Positions 3,492 to 59,974 of a DNA stretch of 64,000 nt are shown here, piece after piece (position 1 is the first letter of the stretch; the number at the start of each line of letters is the position of its first letter). A program made the translations under genes and the position numbers. Under the pieces are notes generated by a model. The model made no database searches. It was not told the DNA's origin and saw only the letters and a program-made list of their open reading frames with translations. Source of the DNA: a virus (Duplodnaviria > Caudoviricetes); the IMG/VR virus record IMGVR_UViG_3300021960_000017. One strand, 5' to 3'.

Positions 3492-5181
3492 GATACTTGT
3501 CTAGTCTATAGCCCTTTGCTTCCCAACAGTCAATATAGCGTGTGCCGTTAGTCATTCGTATCTTGCCTGATCCTACAATAACATCGTGGTCTCTGTAGCC
3601 AAAGGGCTTCTTAATAGTTACGTCTACATATTCACTGTTGCCTACACCTAGCGTAACAAATGTAACATATCTTCCTTGCTCCCCCTTGAATACACGGCCG
3701 TTTGCTACTAGTCCTGCAAAGTTTACACGGTCCAGATAGGTTTCTTGTACAAACATATTGGGCATAAACTCTGGCTGTGACCAATAGCCATTGCGTTTGT
3801 ATTGTGTTACGGGAGATTCACATACACCGTTTTCGTATCCTAGTTCACGCAGGTCCCAGCCTGCTGTTTTTGCTTCCTGTTTGTGCACCCAGCGTTTATA
3901 TGATCCCTGGCAATGTTTGAGTGCTGCTTGCCAGAACTTCATAGGATTGTGTGCTTTTTGATATGCCAGTGCCCAGATAAGTCTGCCCAGGTTTACAGCA
4001 TGAGCACGACATAAACCAAAGTTGCCCAGCCCATATAACTCTTGTATAATTGCTTCCTTGTCATCATGCTCGCCCATGCGAGTCATAAACTCCATTACAC
4101 GCTCTTCATCTTTTTTAGCAAATGCCCGTCTGTACATGTCTGCTTCATACAAGTCACAACCTATGAGTTTGGCTATTTTGCGTATAGCATCGTCTTCATA
4201 TACAATAGTGTCCTCCAGTCTGTTCTCTGTCCAGTCCTGGAAAAAACTTGCCTTTTGTCTGCCAGTGGTTGCAACAGGGCGTATAAGTGCTGTAGCAAAT
4301 ACACAGTCTGCTTTTGATTGAGGTTGTATTGCACGGAATAGGCGGCGCATTGCAGGGGACTCCGCTTGTGTTACACCAATTACATCGCCTCTGCATAGCA
4401 GTTGACTTGTCTCAAAGTCTTGTTCTGGATATGCTTCCAGTGGTGTGTCAGGGTCTATTTCTATAAGTTGGCTTAGTCCACGGTTAGCCAGTATGTCTAT
4501 TTTAAGGTGCTCTAGATCTTCTACTTCACGTTTGTCTAATAATATTTGATTGTCTTTGTTGAATAAACTCTTGGGTAGTTTTCTTTCAAATACAAGAACA
4601 CCACCACAGTGTTTGCTGATACTACGTTTTTTGCCTATTAGTTTTCTTTCTATTCTCATGGCCTCTTCCTTGTCAATGTCTAAATCTTCATAACGAAAAT
4701 TGCGAGGAAGTCTACCAGACGCACCTAGACGGCGTGCCGCTTCTCTACGTGCACTGCGCTCCTTGTATAGCACATAGTTACTGATTCTTGCTGAACGTTC
4801 TGGCCAATTTGCAAAGATACGTTGCATGACAGTGTCCTGTTGCCAATGCGGAAAGTCTATGTCTACGTCTGGTAGATCATCCCTCAGTGGATTTAAGAAA
4901 CGTGCAACCGGTATTTGCCACCTTATGGGATCAACGTCTGTTATTCCTAGAAGATAACAGACAAGACTAGACCCTGCCGAACCCCGAGTCATATGTGTAA
5001 TGTCCTCGGTCAGAGCTAATACGTCACAAATTGTTAGGAAATAATCAGTAAAGCGAAGTTTGAGTATAATCTCAAGTTCTTCGACTAGTCTATCGTGGTA
5101 CTCTTGAGCCTCTGGTATGTGCCTTACAAACCTGCCAAGTAGCCTATCTAATTGAGCCTTCGCGTCTTTTGGTAATTTCAT
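3463..5181 (-). CDS. dnaE: minimal family C DNA polymerase (DnaE-like) lacking the PHP domain
   Basis: RGSAGSSLVCYLLGITDVDP, PDVDIDF, KHCGGVLV, KIDIL palm motifs, C-terminal OB-like region; only 572 aa. Confidence 0.88.
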   Translation of the reverse strand: MKLPKDAKAQLDRLLGRFVRHIPEAQEYHDRLVEELEIILKLRFTDYFLTICDVLALTEDITHMTRGSAGSSLVCYLLGITDVDPIRWQIPVARFLNPLRDDLPDVDIDFPHWQQDTVMQRIFANWPERSARISNYVLYKERSARREAARRLGASGRLPRNFRYEDLDIDKEEAMRIERKLIGKKRSISKHCGGVLVFERKLPKSLFNKDNQILLDKREVEDLEHLKIDILANRGLSQLIEIDPDTPLEAYPEQDFETSQLLCRGDVIGVTQAESPAMRRLFRAIQPQSKADCVFATALIRPVATTGRQKASFFQDWTENRLEDTIVYEDDAIRKIAKLIGCDLYEADMYRRAFAKKDEERVMEFMTRMGEHDDKEAIIQELYGLGNFGLCRAHAVNLGRLIWALAYQKAHNPMKFWQAALKHCQGSYKRWVHKQEAKTAGWDLRELGYENGVCESPVTQYKRNGYWSQPEFMPNMFVQETYLDRVNFAGLVANGRVFKGEQGRYVTFVTLGVGNSEYVDVTIKKPFGYRDHDVIVGSGKIRMTNGTRYIDCWEAKGYRLDKYLNDTCMLAQ

Positions 5182-5258
5182 TGCCTTTGTTTGCCTAAAT
5201 GCCTAAAGTTTTCGTTTTTTGCCTAAGTCATTACTGAGTAATGACGTTTTTATTTAGC
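5182..5258 (-). promoter_or_regulatory. late promoter plus hairpin plus AGGCA repeat leader of dnaE
   Basis: Minus strand: GCTAAATA, then GTCATTAC-TCA-GTAATGAC inverted repeat (5227-5245), then TTAGGCA x3 and AAGGCA directly before the ATG. Confidence 0.65.
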
Positions 5259-10762: not shown

Positions 10763-11182
10763 ATGAGACATTGTTCAAGCGTATGGCAGGATCATCCTGG
10801 CATACATAAAGTAGATATCGATAAACTAAGTCCAATGAGTTGGCATGCAGATAACCGTTGGTACTGGCGAGATTTGCCACGCATAATGGATGACGGTTTG
10901 TGGTATCCATTACTATATTATAAATGTACACTAGACTGGTGGAACACAAGTTTCTACAAACGCAAAGGTTCACACGAAATGTGGACGCATATAAATCCTC
11001 CCCAAGTAAATGAAGATGGTATGATATGGGGCGTGTATATGGGCACAAACAGATTGAAATGTCTTAAGTTTATGTCGTATAATAGTGTTGATTGTATAGA
11101 ATGCAAAGGCCAGGCACAGTTAATCGAGCTAGGTGTATATTTAAGAGACAAGGATCCACTACACAATGCCGTTACAGTATGA
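10763..11182 (+). CDS. ParB/Srx-like nuclease-domain protein
   Basis: GLWYPLLY...VYMGTNRL resembles the ParB N-terminal GxxR motif; ATG at 10763 preferred because the track start lies inside the terminator. Confidence 0.45.
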   Translation: MRHCSSVWQDHPGIHKVDIDKLSPMSWHADNRWYWRDLPRIMDDGLWYPLLYYKCTLDWWNTSFYKRKGSHEMWTHINPPQVNEDGMIWGVYMGTNRLKCLKFMSYNSVDCIECKGQAQLIELGVYLRDKDPLHNAVTV

Positions 11183-11633
11183 AGAAATATGGCACCTGCT
11201 CACACTGGTTGACATTACAGAAACTGGACATACCAGAGGCACCGGACTATTAAGAAATCAACAACGTAATTTCGAAACTGTTCAGCAAGTAATAGGTATG
11301 CTAACACAGCCTTTTGGAATAGGGCCTCCTTCTAGTTACAAGTGGGGTAAAGTACATAGACGGTTTAAAGACACAGGCACGGTATGGGGCGAGGTCCATG
11401 ACTTTACTCAGGAAATGCTTGCAGATTTAAATGTGTGGTTGTGGCGTTTTGGTATAGAGCGTGAAGGTGTTTTTGATTTACATGAAAAATTTGACGGTAA
11501 AAATTTACTTAATGCGTTTGAAAATGTGCCTGTTATAACTGGATTAACAGAAAATGCAGTACTACAACCACCTGTGTTTAGTATATCCCCTAAACTACAA
11601 AATGTGCTATTAATATGTGAGACTAGGCGGTAA
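11166..11633 (+). CDS. hypothetical protein
   Basis: 155 aa ORF overlapping the upstream gene. Confidence 0.55.
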   Translation: MPLQYEEIWHLLTLVDITETGHTRGTGLLRNQQRNFETVQQVIGMLTQPFGIGPPSSYKWGKVHRRFKDTGTVWGEVHDFTQEMLADLNVWLWRFGIEREGVFDLHEKFDGKNLLNAFENVPVITGLTENAVLQPPVFSISPKLQNVLLICETRR

Positions 11634-11634
11634 C

Positions 11635-11723
11635 TAAATATGTATGATGCATTAGGCACAACTAGGCTCATTATAGGCAAAAAAATAGGCATACAATCAA
11701 GCATCACCCAAAGGAGTTGGTGA
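11635..11723 (+). promoter_or_regulatory. late promoter plus TAGGC x4 leader
   Basis: TAAATA 11635-11640; TAGGC at 11653, 11663, 11674, 11686, enclosed by TGATGC/GCATCA. Confidence 0.6.
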
Positions 11724-11734
11724 GACCGTAATCA

Positions 11735-11983
11735 ATGGCAGACATTGAAAAAGAAAGTTTAGAAGCACACGTAGAGTTGTGCTCTGAAAGGTATAAAGCA
11801 TTGCACGATAAACTCGATGCAGTAAATCTTCGTCTTGACAAACAAGACAAGACACTAACTCACATCGCTACTAGTATTAGCAAAATGGAAGAAGGACGCA
11901 ACAAGCAAGTAATGGCTTGGGGTGCAGGTATTATTGCTGCACTTGCTGCGGCAGTAGGCGTTTTACTTTTAAAAGTCCTTTAA
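11735..11983 (+). CDS. small membrane protein, XhlA/holin-like architecture
   Basis: Coiled coil followed by a single C-terminal TM helix (WGAGIIAALAAAVGVLLL). Confidence 0.5.
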   Translation: MADIEKESLEAHVELCSERYKALHDKLDAVNLRLDKQDKTLTHIATSISKMEEGRNKQVMAWGAGIIAALAAAVGVLLLKVL

Positions 11984-25956: not shown

Positions 25957-27858
25957 ATGGCAACTATTAAAGCAACTATCACTAGTCTTGGTCTTAATGC
26001 ACTGGGTGGTGCAGTAAATGGTCAGGGTTTAAATAACCTAGGTAAAATTTTAAGTCAGCCTATGTCTAACCTTGGTGGATTTGGCGGTCAGATGGATGCC
26101 CAGGCTAAAATTGCAAATATAATTAAAACAGATTACGATACTCCAGCATTATTAAATGCTGGTGGTTTTAATCCATTAGTTTACCTTAGCAATGCATTAA
26201 CTGGTGTAGCAGATGAAGTAGGCAGCGCAACTAGTGATGGTCGTGGTGCTATTTCCGGATCACTAGGATCAGGTTTTCAAGCTCTAGATGGATCAGGTAT
26301 AGTAGATGCAATTAGTATACACACAGAGTACCTTAAAGGAAGTTATGGTGCTAATAGTATTATGCAGTGTTTTGTTGGTGTAGAAGCATTTTGCTTTATC
26401 AGTAAAGAAATGTACCAAACACTCGAAGGCGGTCTAGCAGCTCGTTTTGGTAGCGCATTTGCTGCGTTAAACAGTAGTTTACCAGCAAGTGAAACATTAT
26501 CAGCAGTAGATAGTACATTTTTAGCAAATAATAGTAACAGTGAAGTAGAGGAAATATTAGGTGGCGAATATGCCTTTACCAATTTTCTTGGTGTTAATAT
26601 AAACAACATCACAGACGCAATAACAAATGGTTTTAGTAATTTTATTACTGGTAATGTAAAAACAACTTTAGCACAACTTGCAGTTGATTTTACCAACCTT
26701 GGTAATGCGTATGATCTTACAGACATAGACAACTTTGGAAATCCCGGACAGATAGTAGACAGATTAATTAGTGTGGGTGCTGGTGATATTACGGGTGTAA
26801 TAGATGCTATGCAGGATATTGGTGGAAATCAATTACTTGCAAATGTTGGTAATTTATCCAGTAGCCAGTTTAACAGTCAATTAACAGATGCATTAAGTTT
26901 AATTACCAACTCTGAGATGATTGCAATAGCGCAACAAGCATTAGGTAGTAATGTTCCTAATTTGACTAGTTTGGCTGACTTAACTGATATAAGGAAAGTA
27001 TTACCAACGAGTTTTGATAATATTAGTCCTAATACTTTTACTCAACTAGTTGTTGAACTTAAAAATTTAAATATTGGAAATTTACAAACACCGCAACAAC
27101 TTGGTACATTACTCGGACGATTCGATTTTCCTGTAAGTTTGCCTACAATAGAAAATTCAACAGTATTAATTGACAATGACGCCGCTGCAAATATTAGAAC
27201 TAAGTTTTTAAATAAAAACTTTAAAGACATGAAAGTAAGTGATGCAATAGGGTCACTTGCGGGTGTTGGTATAAGAAACCCAATTACTAGGTTTACTAAT
27301 GCTATGACAGAAATGGCTAACGCTGGTGCATTTACTGCATTAAATGCTTTATATACTCGTCTTAATGCAGGGTTAAATGGAGATTATAATACAGGCGCTG
27401 TATATGGTGTAGATACTATTGATGATCCGGTAACCAGTATAAGTTATAATGACATGGATGCGTTTGTTAATGCTACACTTTCCCTTATTGGCGCAGAGAT
27501 AACCAGCATTGCGAGCACGGCTGCTTACAGTGATGCTTTTAATAGAGCCCGTGATGCAATTACAGAAATACAGCAAAAAATTTACGATGAAAGCATTACA
27601 TATATTCCTATGATGGATTTGCATTTAAATGATAGAAATAATGATCCTGTAAATGTATATGGTTTTGCGACAAGCATGGAGTCAAGAGTAGAAGACCCTG
27701 ATGCTTTAGATGTACTAAAAGGATTAGCAGAGGCGGCTAAATTACAGAATGATAAGTTTGGTAGCTATTGGGACGCATTTATAAGCGAAACCGTTAATAG
27801 AAACGCTGTTCAAACGCATTCAATAGACTGGATTGCAGAAGATAAAATAGAAATTTAA
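25957..27858 (+). CDS. putative tail/baseplate protein
   Basis: 633 aa A/G/N/S-rich, follows PAAR. Confidence 0.5.
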   Translation: MATIKATITSLGLNALGGAVNGQGLNNLGKILSQPMSNLGGFGGQMDAQAKIANIIKTDYDTPALLNAGGFNPLVYLSNALTGVADEVGSATSDGRGAISGSLGSGFQALDGSGIVDAISIHTEYLKGSYGANSIMQCFVGVEAFCFISKEMYQTLEGGLAARFGSAFAALNSSLPASETLSAVDSTFLANNSNSEVEEILGGEYAFTNFLGVNINNITDAITNGFSNFITGNVKTTLAQLAVDFTNLGNAYDLTDIDNFGNPGQIVDRLISVGAGDITGVIDAMQDIGGNQLLANVGNLSSSQFNSQLTDALSLITNSEMIAIAQQALGSNVPNLTSLADLTDIRKVLPTSFDNISPNTFTQLVVELKNLNIGNLQTPQQLGTLLGRFDFPVSLPTIENSTVLIDNDAAANIRTKFLNKNFKDMKVSDAIGSLAGVGIRNPITRFTNAMTEMANAGAFTALNALYTRLNAGLNGDYNTGAVYGVDTIDDPVTSISYNDMDAFVNATLSLIGAEITSIASTAAYSDAFNRARDAITEIQQKIYDESITYIPMMDLHLNDRNNDPVNVYGFATSMESRVEDPDALDVLKGLAEAAKLQNDKFGSYWDAFISETVNRNAVQTHSIDWIAEDKIEI

Positions 27859-27890
27859 CAAATTTTTCCAGTATTACTTACATAAATAAA

Positions 27891-28170
27891 CACTGTAACG
27901 TCGAAGGGCGTTGAAAAACGTAATGGACATGGGGGCAGTACCCATCGTCTCCACCATAAGCACATGGCATTTGTAGTGTGTTTATGTGGGGACGAACCAG
28001 GATCGACATGCGTGGAGTATACAACTGGAGTTATCGGTAGGCGTGACCGTAAATCAGCAAAACAAAGTAAATGCAAACGATAATTTTGCATCTGAGGATT
28101 TTGCCCTAGCGGCATAATACCTATGGGCGTACAGGGCGCCTGGAAACAGAAGGGACTTAGGTCCCACCTG
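27891..28170 (+). ncRNA. ssrA: circularly permuted (two-piece) tmRNA, alphaproteobacterial type
   Basis: 3' acceptor piece GGACATGGGGGCAGTACCCATCGTCTCCACCA ends at 27956; hairpin spacer; 5' piece GGGGACGAACCAGGATCGAC starts at 27988; tag frame 28073-28117 ANDNFASEDFALAA*; TAAATA at 27883; 5' boundary and 3' end approximate. Confidence 0.93.
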
Positions 28171-33307: not shown

Positions 33308-33382
33308 TCCAGGATAGCTCAACGGCAGAGCCATCGGCTGTTAACCGATAGGTTGTAGGTTCGAATCCTACTCCTGGAGCCA
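33308..33382 (+). tRNA. tRNA-Asn(GTT)
   Basis: Full cloverleaf, anticodon loop CTGTTAA, GGTTCGAATCC, encoded CCA. Confidence 0.97.
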
Positions 33383-59506: not shown

Positions 59507-59582
59507 GATTCCGTAGCTCAGAGGATAGAGCATCCGCCTTCTAAGCGGATGGTCGCAGGTTCGAATCCTGCCGGGATCGCCA
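59507..59582 (+). tRNA. tRNA-Arg(TCT)
   Basis: GATTCCG/CGGGATC acceptor stem, TCCGC/GCGGA anticodon stem, loop CTTCTAA, encoded CCA. Confidence 0.97.
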
Positions 59583-59596
59583 TTTGGAGTAACTCG

Positions 59597-59974
59597 ATGA
59601 CGATGCATCTTGTAGGTCCTTATTTGACCACAACCAACTTCAGGCCTCGCAAGGCCAAGAACAAAAGCAAGGCACAACTTGCTACAGATGCAGCTCATGC
59701 AAAGTTTCTCAAGAAGATGGGTTATAAGGGGAATGGTGTCAGTGGTAGCACAGTAGTCTCCAAAACTAACAGCGAGGGTTCGATTCCTTCTTCCTCTGCC
59801 ATCCCTAGCATAGGTGATGGTGTCGGTTATAATCCAGGTATGTCTCGGCGTAAAGAAAATGTCTATAGTGGCGAGCGCAAACTGTTAGGCGTTGCCACTA
59901 TGCATAAATCCAATATGGTGCCAGTATTTTCCAGTGAAGATGCTGAAGCAATATCCAAGATGAGACGTGGATGA
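59597..59974 (+). CDS. conserved phage protein containing a nested tRNA
   Basis: GGAG RBS, MTMHLVGP start; C-terminus LLGVATMHKSNMVPVF..EDAEAISKMRRG. Confidence 0.75.
   Translation: MTMHLVGPYLTTTNFRPRKAKNKSKAQLATDAAHAKFLKKMGYKGNGVSGSTVVSKTNSEGSIPSSSAIPSIGDGVGYNPGMSRRKENVYSGERKLLGVATMHKSNMVPVFSSEDAEAISKMRRG
59727..59801 (+). tRNA. tRNA-Trp(CCA), nested in frame in the CDS
   Basis: AGGGGAA/TTCCTCT acceptor, GTGT/GCAC D-stem, loop CTCCAAA, GAGGG-TTCGATT-CCTTC T-arm, G73 and CCA. Confidence 0.85.

Follow-up and report, generated by a model that had tools for sequence, protein, structure and literature searches.

The window analyzed in this study is a stretch of 64,000 nucleotides from a virus of the Caudoviricetes (IMG/VR record IMGVR_UViG_3300021960_000017). 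Its positions 11635-11734 lie between a 155-aa open reading frame (11166-11633) and a gene for an 82-aa protein, and they are predicted from the sequence to be the 5' untranslated leader of the mRNA of this small membrane-anchored protein, transcribed from a T4-type TAAATA promoter. The TAAATA motif begins one base past the stop codon of the 155-aa ORF. An earlier note on this DNA had described the motif, four copies of TAGGC and the pairings TGATGC/GCATCA and TCACC/GGTGA upstream of a membrane-protein gene, and all of them are found, the TAGGC copies at the positions that it gave. They are listed in Table 1 together with a sister leader that precedes a DnaE-like polymerase gene.

Table 1. Features of the membrane-protein leader, of its sister leader and of the genes that follow them (window positions)
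Feature	Position	Strand	Description
DnaE-like polymerase piece, 572 aa	3463..5181	-	PF07733 7e-43, PF17657 1.5e-14
dnaE sister leader	5182..5257	-	CTAAATA 5257-5251; hairpin 5245-5227; four (T/A)AGGCA boxes, with AGGCA at 5224-5220, 5204-5200, 5196-5192 and 5186-5182; ATG at 5181, abutting the last box
TAAATA, core of T4-type late promoter	11635..11640	+	sequence read; predicted +1 at ~11646
Stem 1, 5' arm TGATGC	11645..11650	+	closes the box loop; begins at the predicted 5' end of the transcript
Four boxes	11653..11691	+	TAGGCA 11653, TAGGCT 11663, TAGGCA 11674, TAGGCA 11686
Stem 1, 3' arm GCATCA	11701..11706	+	complementary to TGATGC 11645-50
Hairpin 2, TCACC ... GGTGA	11704..11723	+	arms 11704-11708 / 11719-11723
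Small hairpin UCAAUG/CAUUGA	11732..11748	+	pairs the start codon; folding prediction
Membrane-protein gene, 82 aa	11735..11983	+	N-terminal coiled-coil-like part, C-terminal hydrophobic anchor

The four boxes of the window leader are spaced by 10, 11 and 12 nt with A-rich, G-poor spacers, and three of the four TAGGC copies have the form TAGGCA. They lie 45-80 nt upstream of the ATG, within a closed loop; 44 nt separate the end of the last box from the ATG, and hairpin 2 lies in this interval. The 5' arm of hairpin 2 shares 3 nt with the 3' arm of stem 1, AAGGAG lies in its loop, and its 3' arm is the Shine-Dalgarno-like GGTGA. The start codon is itself predicted to be paired, with an AUG unpaired probability of ~0 compared to a median of 0.46 for 93 genes of the window. 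Start-codon pairing is kept in close relatives by means of another register (AUGUC/GACAU) and is absent in more distant lineages. The position of the predicted +1 is our assumption from the spacing of T4 late promoters, where transcripts begin ~6 nt after TATAAATA. A 27-codon ORF starting at 11640 was considered as a possible leader peptide and rejected, since it starts upstream of the predicted +1 and is not conserved in relatives. A fifth TAGGC, at 11624, is part of the upstream ORF, in its final codons, and is likewise not conserved.

The 82-aa product has a single C-terminal hydrophobic segment. Its relatives are environmental phage proteins that form an orphan family, and no Pfam family scored above cut-off. 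A tblastn search of cultured phages gave no match either. Its match to PHROG 1193 (XhlA 'hemolysin') is weak (E = 2.5e-4), and its nearest named Atlas cluster is XhlA-like. Virion structural proteins and an exonuclease are encoded nearby, whereas the genes scanned did not include one for an endolysin. The product had been called a holin-like membrane protein: the hydrophobic C-terminal tail is there, and the holin identity comes down to a weak lead, the XhlA-like match. A terminator-like stem with a T-run is located at 11931-11968 on the plus strand, inside the last codons of this gene and ~15 nt before its stop.

RNA genes were also found on the plus strand of the window. A permuted two-piece tmRNA of alphaproteobacterial type (27852-28160; RF01849 112 bits, RF04321 121 bits) hints at an alphaproteobacterial host. 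Three tRNA genes were found at 33308-33379, 59507-59579 and 59727-59798, the last of which lies inside an ORF (59549-59974) whose start is overlapped by the second.

TAAATA leaders are mostly short in the window. Sense-strand TAAATA is enriched 7-fold in the last 60 nt before its gene starts, and (C/T)TAAATA or TATAAATA is found 1-25 nt before many starts (29680, 35130, 47655, 53699), often just past a terminator, which is consistent with T4-type late promoters giving very short leaders. The distance from TAAATA to ATG is 94 nt in the membrane-protein leader and 69 nt in the dnaE leader, and at most 25 nt in all but one of the others.

The earlier note had proposed a genome-wide comparison with shuffled sequence as a check, and this comparison shows that the arrays are enriched over background. 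The word TAGGC is not enriched overall (112 observed in the whole window vs 102 expected). Runs of at least three TAGGC within 70 nt occur only in the window leader and in the dnaE leader, and the three matches to AGGC-N3-12-AGGC-N3-12-AGGC (0.29 expected) all fall in these two leaders. Likewise, WGGCA pairs located outside genes of the window are confined to the membrane-protein and dnaE leaders. Four TAGGC within 40 nt were obtained in none of 1000 block shuffles.

The DNA of the window had no match among cultured phages in a DNA similarity search. The 155-aa upstream protein retrieved 80 IMG/VR loci, and 28 distinct leaders of the same downstream gene were collected from IMG/VR, where the upstream protein is ~31-78% identical to that of the window. 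The element is kept in these 28 leaders, so that the other proposed check, conservation in related phages, also came out in its favor. Their common plan consists of TAAATA, an enclosing stem that starts from the predicted +1, one to five WGGCA(C)A boxes and a matching 3' arm. The box loop is ~50 nt in most of them, and an extra small hairpin follows TAAATA in some. Because MAFFT alignments misplaced the arms, stems were tabulated by script. The 5' arm is usually (T)GATGC(T/A), and 19 distinct leaders retain the GATGC/GCATC core, with extensions that vary; in other lineages the array is enclosed by other arms, namely ATCACA/TGTGAT and AGATTTTTA/TAGGAATCT. In leaders with the GATGC stem, the 5' arm of the second hairpin re-uses the final 2-3 nt of the 3' arm of the stem. 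The sequence of hairpin 2 can be fully replaced with pairing and overlap kept (TCACC/GGTGA, TCGCC/GGTGA, TCGTTTAA/TTAAACGA and TCGCT/AGGCGA).

Distant relatives that have the same gene (N-terminus ...IEKKSLEAHVELCAERYK) carry TAAATA 4-22 nt from the ATG and zero boxes. From this short, box-free leader it follows that the array was inserted downstream of a late-type promoter that is conserved, and ahead of the ribosome site. TAAATA is kept at the membrane-protein gene in all relatives, including those with short box-free leaders, and this retention, the presence of the core and its enrichment upstream of starts are what the element has in common with T4-type late promoters.

The earlier note had also placed an AGGC(A) array before dnaE, on the opposite strand and ~6 kb away, and four boxes are indeed present there, at 5224-5182. 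The 5' hairpin of this leader is a perfect 8 bp. The DnaE piece retrieved 44 loci, and 38 out of 38 readable leaders keep TAAATA, the hairpin and two to four WGGCA boxes (26 distinct leaders, that of the window included), with compensatory changes in two of the four hairpin pairs. Distances between dnaE boxes fall mainly at 8-11 nt and 18-22 nt. The last box takes the place of the ribosome site, and in many dnaE leaders it gives a GAGG located 4-6 nt before the ATG, where another Shine-Dalgarno sequence is missing. On the plus strand, this hairpin (5227-5245) has GTTTTTATTT behind it and is scored as an intrinsic terminator. This terminator is a by-product of the TAAATAAAAA that precedes the hairpin on the minus strand, and it might also stop antisense transcription.

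A pattern scan of the records of five large relatives exposed a third leader type, located before the SSB gene. It is composed of TAAATA, a hairpin, AGGCACA ... AGGCTAAACA ... AGGCACA and an AAGGAG ribosome site. The SSB protein matches PHROG 1192 (SSB) at 1.3e-65, has a weak Pfam gp32 match, and is 45-57% identical to the annotated SSBs of the cultured jumbo phages PA5oct, Phosso, Atu_ph07 and RaK2. A further 80 SSB loci (59-92% identical) were fetched, and 65 distinct SSB leaders were counted. All readable SSB leaders have the hairpin and one to four boxes, the first of them 2-5 nt past the helix, and compensatory changes affect five of the eight hairpin pairs. In many SSB leaders there is also a sigma70-like TTGACA-17-TATACT promoter, with the TAAATA motif inside its spacer (e.g., L137:1400-1503; loci L137-L216). 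As the -10 hexamer is part of the SSB 5' hairpin, the 5' structure would not be the same in early transcripts as in late ones. Describing these leaders as late is therefore correct insofar as a T4-type TAAATA precedes each of them, and incomplete for the SSB leader, which has the sigma70-like promoter in addition.

The SSB, dnaE and membrane-protein leaders constitute a three-member set. The earlier note had proposed a set shared by the membrane-protein and dnaE leaders, which do have the array in common; it had missed the third member, the SSB leader, which is the most widely conserved. A scan of the records of 13 relatives found arrays confined to the three leader types, except for coincidences at ATG-GCA start codons and in coding sequence, and the reversed-pattern control gave 0-1 matches.

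Comparison among relatives provides a plausible history for this set. In the relative G005 the membrane-protein leader is short and box-free, and the SSB leader keeps the hairpin and two AGGCAA. The SSB leader of Atu_ph07 (L220:400-525) has TAAATA, a hairpin and two to three copies of TAGCACA, a repeat that is unique in the 490-kb genome. That of Phosso has two WGGCTC, and that of Vibrio phage 2.275.O (L221) has GGTACAAC twice. Word arrays at other genes were not found in Atu_ph07 and were not in excess in Phosso. Since G005 has boxes at SSB without boxes at the membrane-protein gene, and since Atu_ph07 has the same layout with a different word, the SSB leader was probably the original site, from which one marine clade later acquired copies of the words in its dnaE and membrane-protein leaders.

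Tabulation of the boxes over the three leader sets corrects the word that had been read as TAGGC or AGGC(A). The array stands as described, and the word itself is WGGCA(C)A, with GGCA as the core of every box tabulated and with TGGCA variants included. Sense and antisense WGGCA were counted at 72:0 in the membrane-protein leaders, and at 72:0, 85:0 and 133:0 across the three leader sets (290:0). G makes up 3-7% of the spacers and A 51-60%, compared to 18% G and 34% A in the other leaders of the window; for the membrane-protein set the G content is 3% vs 18%. Box spacing ranges over 8-16 nt in the three leader classes, with modes of 12, 11 and 14, and therefore the boxes are not phased to the DNA helix. 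It is narrow in the membrane-protein leaders (10-14 nt, mode 12), a range that would suit direct repeats on DNA as well. The arrays are always found between the predicted late-transcript start and the start codon, and in all three leader classes a 5' helix begins at the predicted +1, with compensatory changes in the helices of SSB and dnaE.

From the sense-only words, the G-poor spacers, the lack of helical phase, the helix at the predicted +1 and the dnaE box at the ribosome site, we infer that the element acts at the RNA level. The reading that we favor, and that we hold to be somewhat better than an even bet, is that the leader is a cis-regulatory RNA operator of a three-message translational regulon, bound by a trans-acting protein with affinity for single strands, most likely an SSB of the gp32 type. 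The shared post-transcriptional regulon suggested earlier is thus upheld as far as the array is concerned, which is non-random, conserved and common to the dnaE leader, and a trans-acting reader is the best-supported way to interpret it.

An operator in duplex DNA appears unlikely by comparison. According to this explanation, the boxes would be direct repeats bound by a phage or host transcription factor (e.g., a winged-helix protein) downstream of the promoter, which would modulate transcription of the three genes. The boxes are indeed direct repeats in one orientation, the intervals in the leader class of the window are regular (10-13 nt in 49 out of 60) and those of dnaE fall into two clusters, and searches of five partial relatives for RegA, CsrA, cold-shock and Hfq proteins did not find an RNA-binding reader. 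However, spacing over the three classes has no helical phase, and neither the strong single-strand bias, with its G depletion on the sense strand, nor the constant location of the arrays between the predicted +1 and the start codon is expected of such an operator. The flanking helices with compensatory changes and the enclosing stem of the membrane-protein leader also argue against it.

A little less probable still is that the AGG words are ribosome standby sites, that is, weak Shine-Dalgarno-like landing pads that raise translation without a dedicated protein. The AGG core does resemble a Shine-Dalgarno sequence, the spacers are A-rich, and the GAGG formed by the last box of many dnaE leaders is placed where a ribosome site would be. 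However, the invariant C after AGG, usually with A next to it, mismatches the canonical anti-Shine-Dalgarno sequence, and TGGCA variants are common. In addition, genes of this phage use ordinary AGGAG-type sites, SSB leaders carry one besides their boxes, and the boxes of the membrane-protein leader are far upstream of the ATG inside a closed loop.

We give even less credit to a role in processing or decay, in which a sequence-specific endoribonuclease would cut the words, remove the 5' helix and destabilize the three messages at a set time. Short G-containing words in a single-stranded A-rich context, between a 5'-terminal helix and the ribosome site, would be suitable targets, and T4 RegB, which cuts GGAG, is a precedent for a 4-nt leader target (PMC3014915). 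No nuclease candidate was identified, though, and multiple, evenly spaced copies with a helix-adjacent first box suit cooperative binding better than cleavage. A single-stranded DNA element, in which an R-loop at the G-poor leader would expose the words on the displaced non-template strand as loading sites for SSB or a helicase loader, is a speculative and very improbable alternative. R-loops do form at T4 origins, and the non-template strand is where the words are found, beside replication genes and with strong strand asymmetry. However, three such sites would be odd, one of them before a late membrane-protein gene, and neither an AT-rich unwinding element nor a replication skew is in evidence.

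Returning to the RNA operator, folding predictions bear on how its parts might work. The single-sequence fold of the window leader is no more stable than that of shuffles (z = -0.11), stem 1 is missing from the minimum-free-energy structure, each stem alone is not significant vs shuffles, and the predicted accessibility of the boxes is not above that in shuffled contexts. Covariation is limited because the GATGC/GCATC core of stem 1 is invariant in most relatives; strict covariation is observed for one flanking pair, in addition to the lineages where the whole stem is replaced. Predicted energies with stem 1 forced or forbidden were close in most of the 12 relatives tested. The stem 1 and hairpin 2 conformers are predicted by this modeling to be nearly iso-energetic, which is compatible with a switch.

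Rfam had no match on 11560-11800 up to E = 10, none on the membrane-protein or dnaE leader when the whole window was searched at gathering score, and none up to E = 0.1 on the leaders of six relatives' loci bearing SSB or membrane-protein leaders. A covariance model built from SSB leaders ranked the dnaE leader first in the window (E = 0.19) and the membrane-protein leader 11th. The signal that the leaders share, a short word and a helix, is too small for a strong covariance model.

Candidate readers were sought in the records of five relatives, which are 31-57% complete. RegA (PF01818) had no match in them, and the control genomes were unmatched too. CsrA (PF02599) was absent from these 31-57% complete records, and the control genomes were matched. 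Genes for cold-shock-domain proteins and Hfq were not found in them either. The record of the relative G005 contains a Polynucleobacter-1 RNA (RF01718, 91 bits; L217:1501-1636), and a single AGGCATC lies ~70 nt upstream of it. This RNA was considered as an antisense reader and discarded, as its UGCCUA sits in a conserved stem and not in a loop. No TGCCW cluster, as would suit an antisense reader, was seen in the window.

By analogy with T4, the leading candidate and most likely reader would be the SSB of the phage itself. Three observations fit this analogy: the SSB leader is universal, its first box is located 2-5 nt past the helix, and the word varies by lineage. The site size of gp32 is ~7 nt, which is compatible with the minimum box spacing of 8 nt.

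In the mechanism that we propose, a stem formed by the first transcribed bases of the membrane-protein message would close a G-poor, A-rich loop of ~50 nt displaying four UAGGC(A) words. The words would serve as docking sites for a trans-acting binder of single-stranded RNA, and the same protein would read the SSB and dnaE leaders. Like T4 gp32 on its own message, free SSB would nucleate beside the 5' helix and then cover the words by spreading. Bound SSB would directly block the ribosome site of the SSB and dnaE messages. In the membrane-protein leader, where boxes are at least 30 nt from the ribosome site, binding would act indirectly and may shift the balance between stem 1 and hairpin 2.

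We infer from this arrangement a direction of control that can be stated in more specific terms, albeit tentatively. It is possible, but rather less than likely, that SSB or another single-strand binder reads WGGCA(C)A and couples the three messages to the state of replication, with the membrane-protein leader as a protein-responsive switch between the array-closing stem and a competing hairpin beside the ribosome site. If so, SSB would cover the ribosome sites of its own message and of the dnaE message and thereby stop the synthesis of both proteins, and the level of free SSB would time a late membrane function, possibly related to lysis.

The element is real and conserved, and it is mechanistically suggestive with a candidate reader. 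A literature search found no published description of the word WGGCA(C)A. The closed-loop architecture, the overlapping second hairpin and the start-codon hairpin are added here, as are the insertion of an array into an ancestrally short late leader and the link to cultured relatives with other words. In a very large group of uncultured aquatic giant phages, a distinct word that is easy to mutate and occurs one to five times per leader appears to have spread from the SSB leader to two other messages, which suggests that replication status is linked to a late membrane protein. The set is a cleaner case than T4 and RB69 in which to test directly how an SSB-type protein might recognize a specific RNA sequence, or else it may lead to a new RNA-binding regulator. 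It also defines a candidate RNA family that could help to annotate phage genomes from metagenomes. Since the cultured relatives Atu_ph07 and Vibrio phage 2.275.O share the layout of the SSB leader with other words, they could be used as models at the bench.

Several known systems resemble this element in part. It had been described as CsrB-like in logic, and the likeness to CsrA/RsmA and CsrB extends to several short G-rich words in an RNA with one protein as reader, a putative one here. The comparison does not hold beyond this point, because CsrB is a non-coding decoy whereas the words are found here in messenger leaders and not in a sponge RNA, the GGA of Csr/Rsm is usually in hairpin loops whereas GGCA lies in a large loop or linear stretch, and no CsrA gene was found in the five partial relatives. 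TRAP and HutP of Bacillus are oligomeric proteins that bind evenly spaced U/GAG leader repeats and remodel neighboring helices. Evenly spaced short leader repeats are common to both cases, but they recur every 5-7 nt in Bacillus compared to 8-16 nt in these phages, and we know of no TRAP or HutP homologue in the latter. T4 RegA controls several replication-related mRNAs as a single factor through unstructured leader sites (PMC3014915). The set described here would be similar in this respect, but RegA binds a single AU-rich site that overlaps the AUG.

The closest known system is the T4 gene 32 operator. Translational self-control of a phage SSB has, to our knowledge, been worked out for T4 and RB69 only, and we know of T4 gp32 as a regulator of its own mRNA only, so that a three-gene SSB regulon would be without precedent. 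In T4, the operator is made of a folded 5' nucleation element and repeated UUAAA/UAAA words that reach to the ribosome site, both of which are needed for repression; it is still unclear by what means gp32 recognizes its own message among other RNAs (PMC535899). T4 and RB69 have operators that differ (PMC535899; PMC3014915).

The window leader resembles the gene 32 operator in having a 5' stem, from the predicted +1, and directly behind it a weakly structured stretch that is G-poor and A-rich. Some differences from the gene 32 operator are evident. The word is WGGCA(C)A instead of UUAAA, the 5' element is read as a plain hairpin and not as a pseudoknot, and the words are also carried by the dnaE and membrane-protein mRNAs. 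The window leader precedes a membrane-protein gene and not SSB, although the sister element of relatives does precede SSB. Words extend to the ribosome site in the SSB and dnaE leaders, whereas in the window leader they stop short of it. With its copy on another gene, its words short of the ribosome site and its putative SSB binding, the window leader is thus not a strict member of the gene 32 operator class. The SSB leaders, on the other hand, share the exact layout of the T4 and RB69 operators, a folded 5' element followed by weakly structured repeats of a word, and the word varies among lineages here as the operators of T4 and RB69 do.
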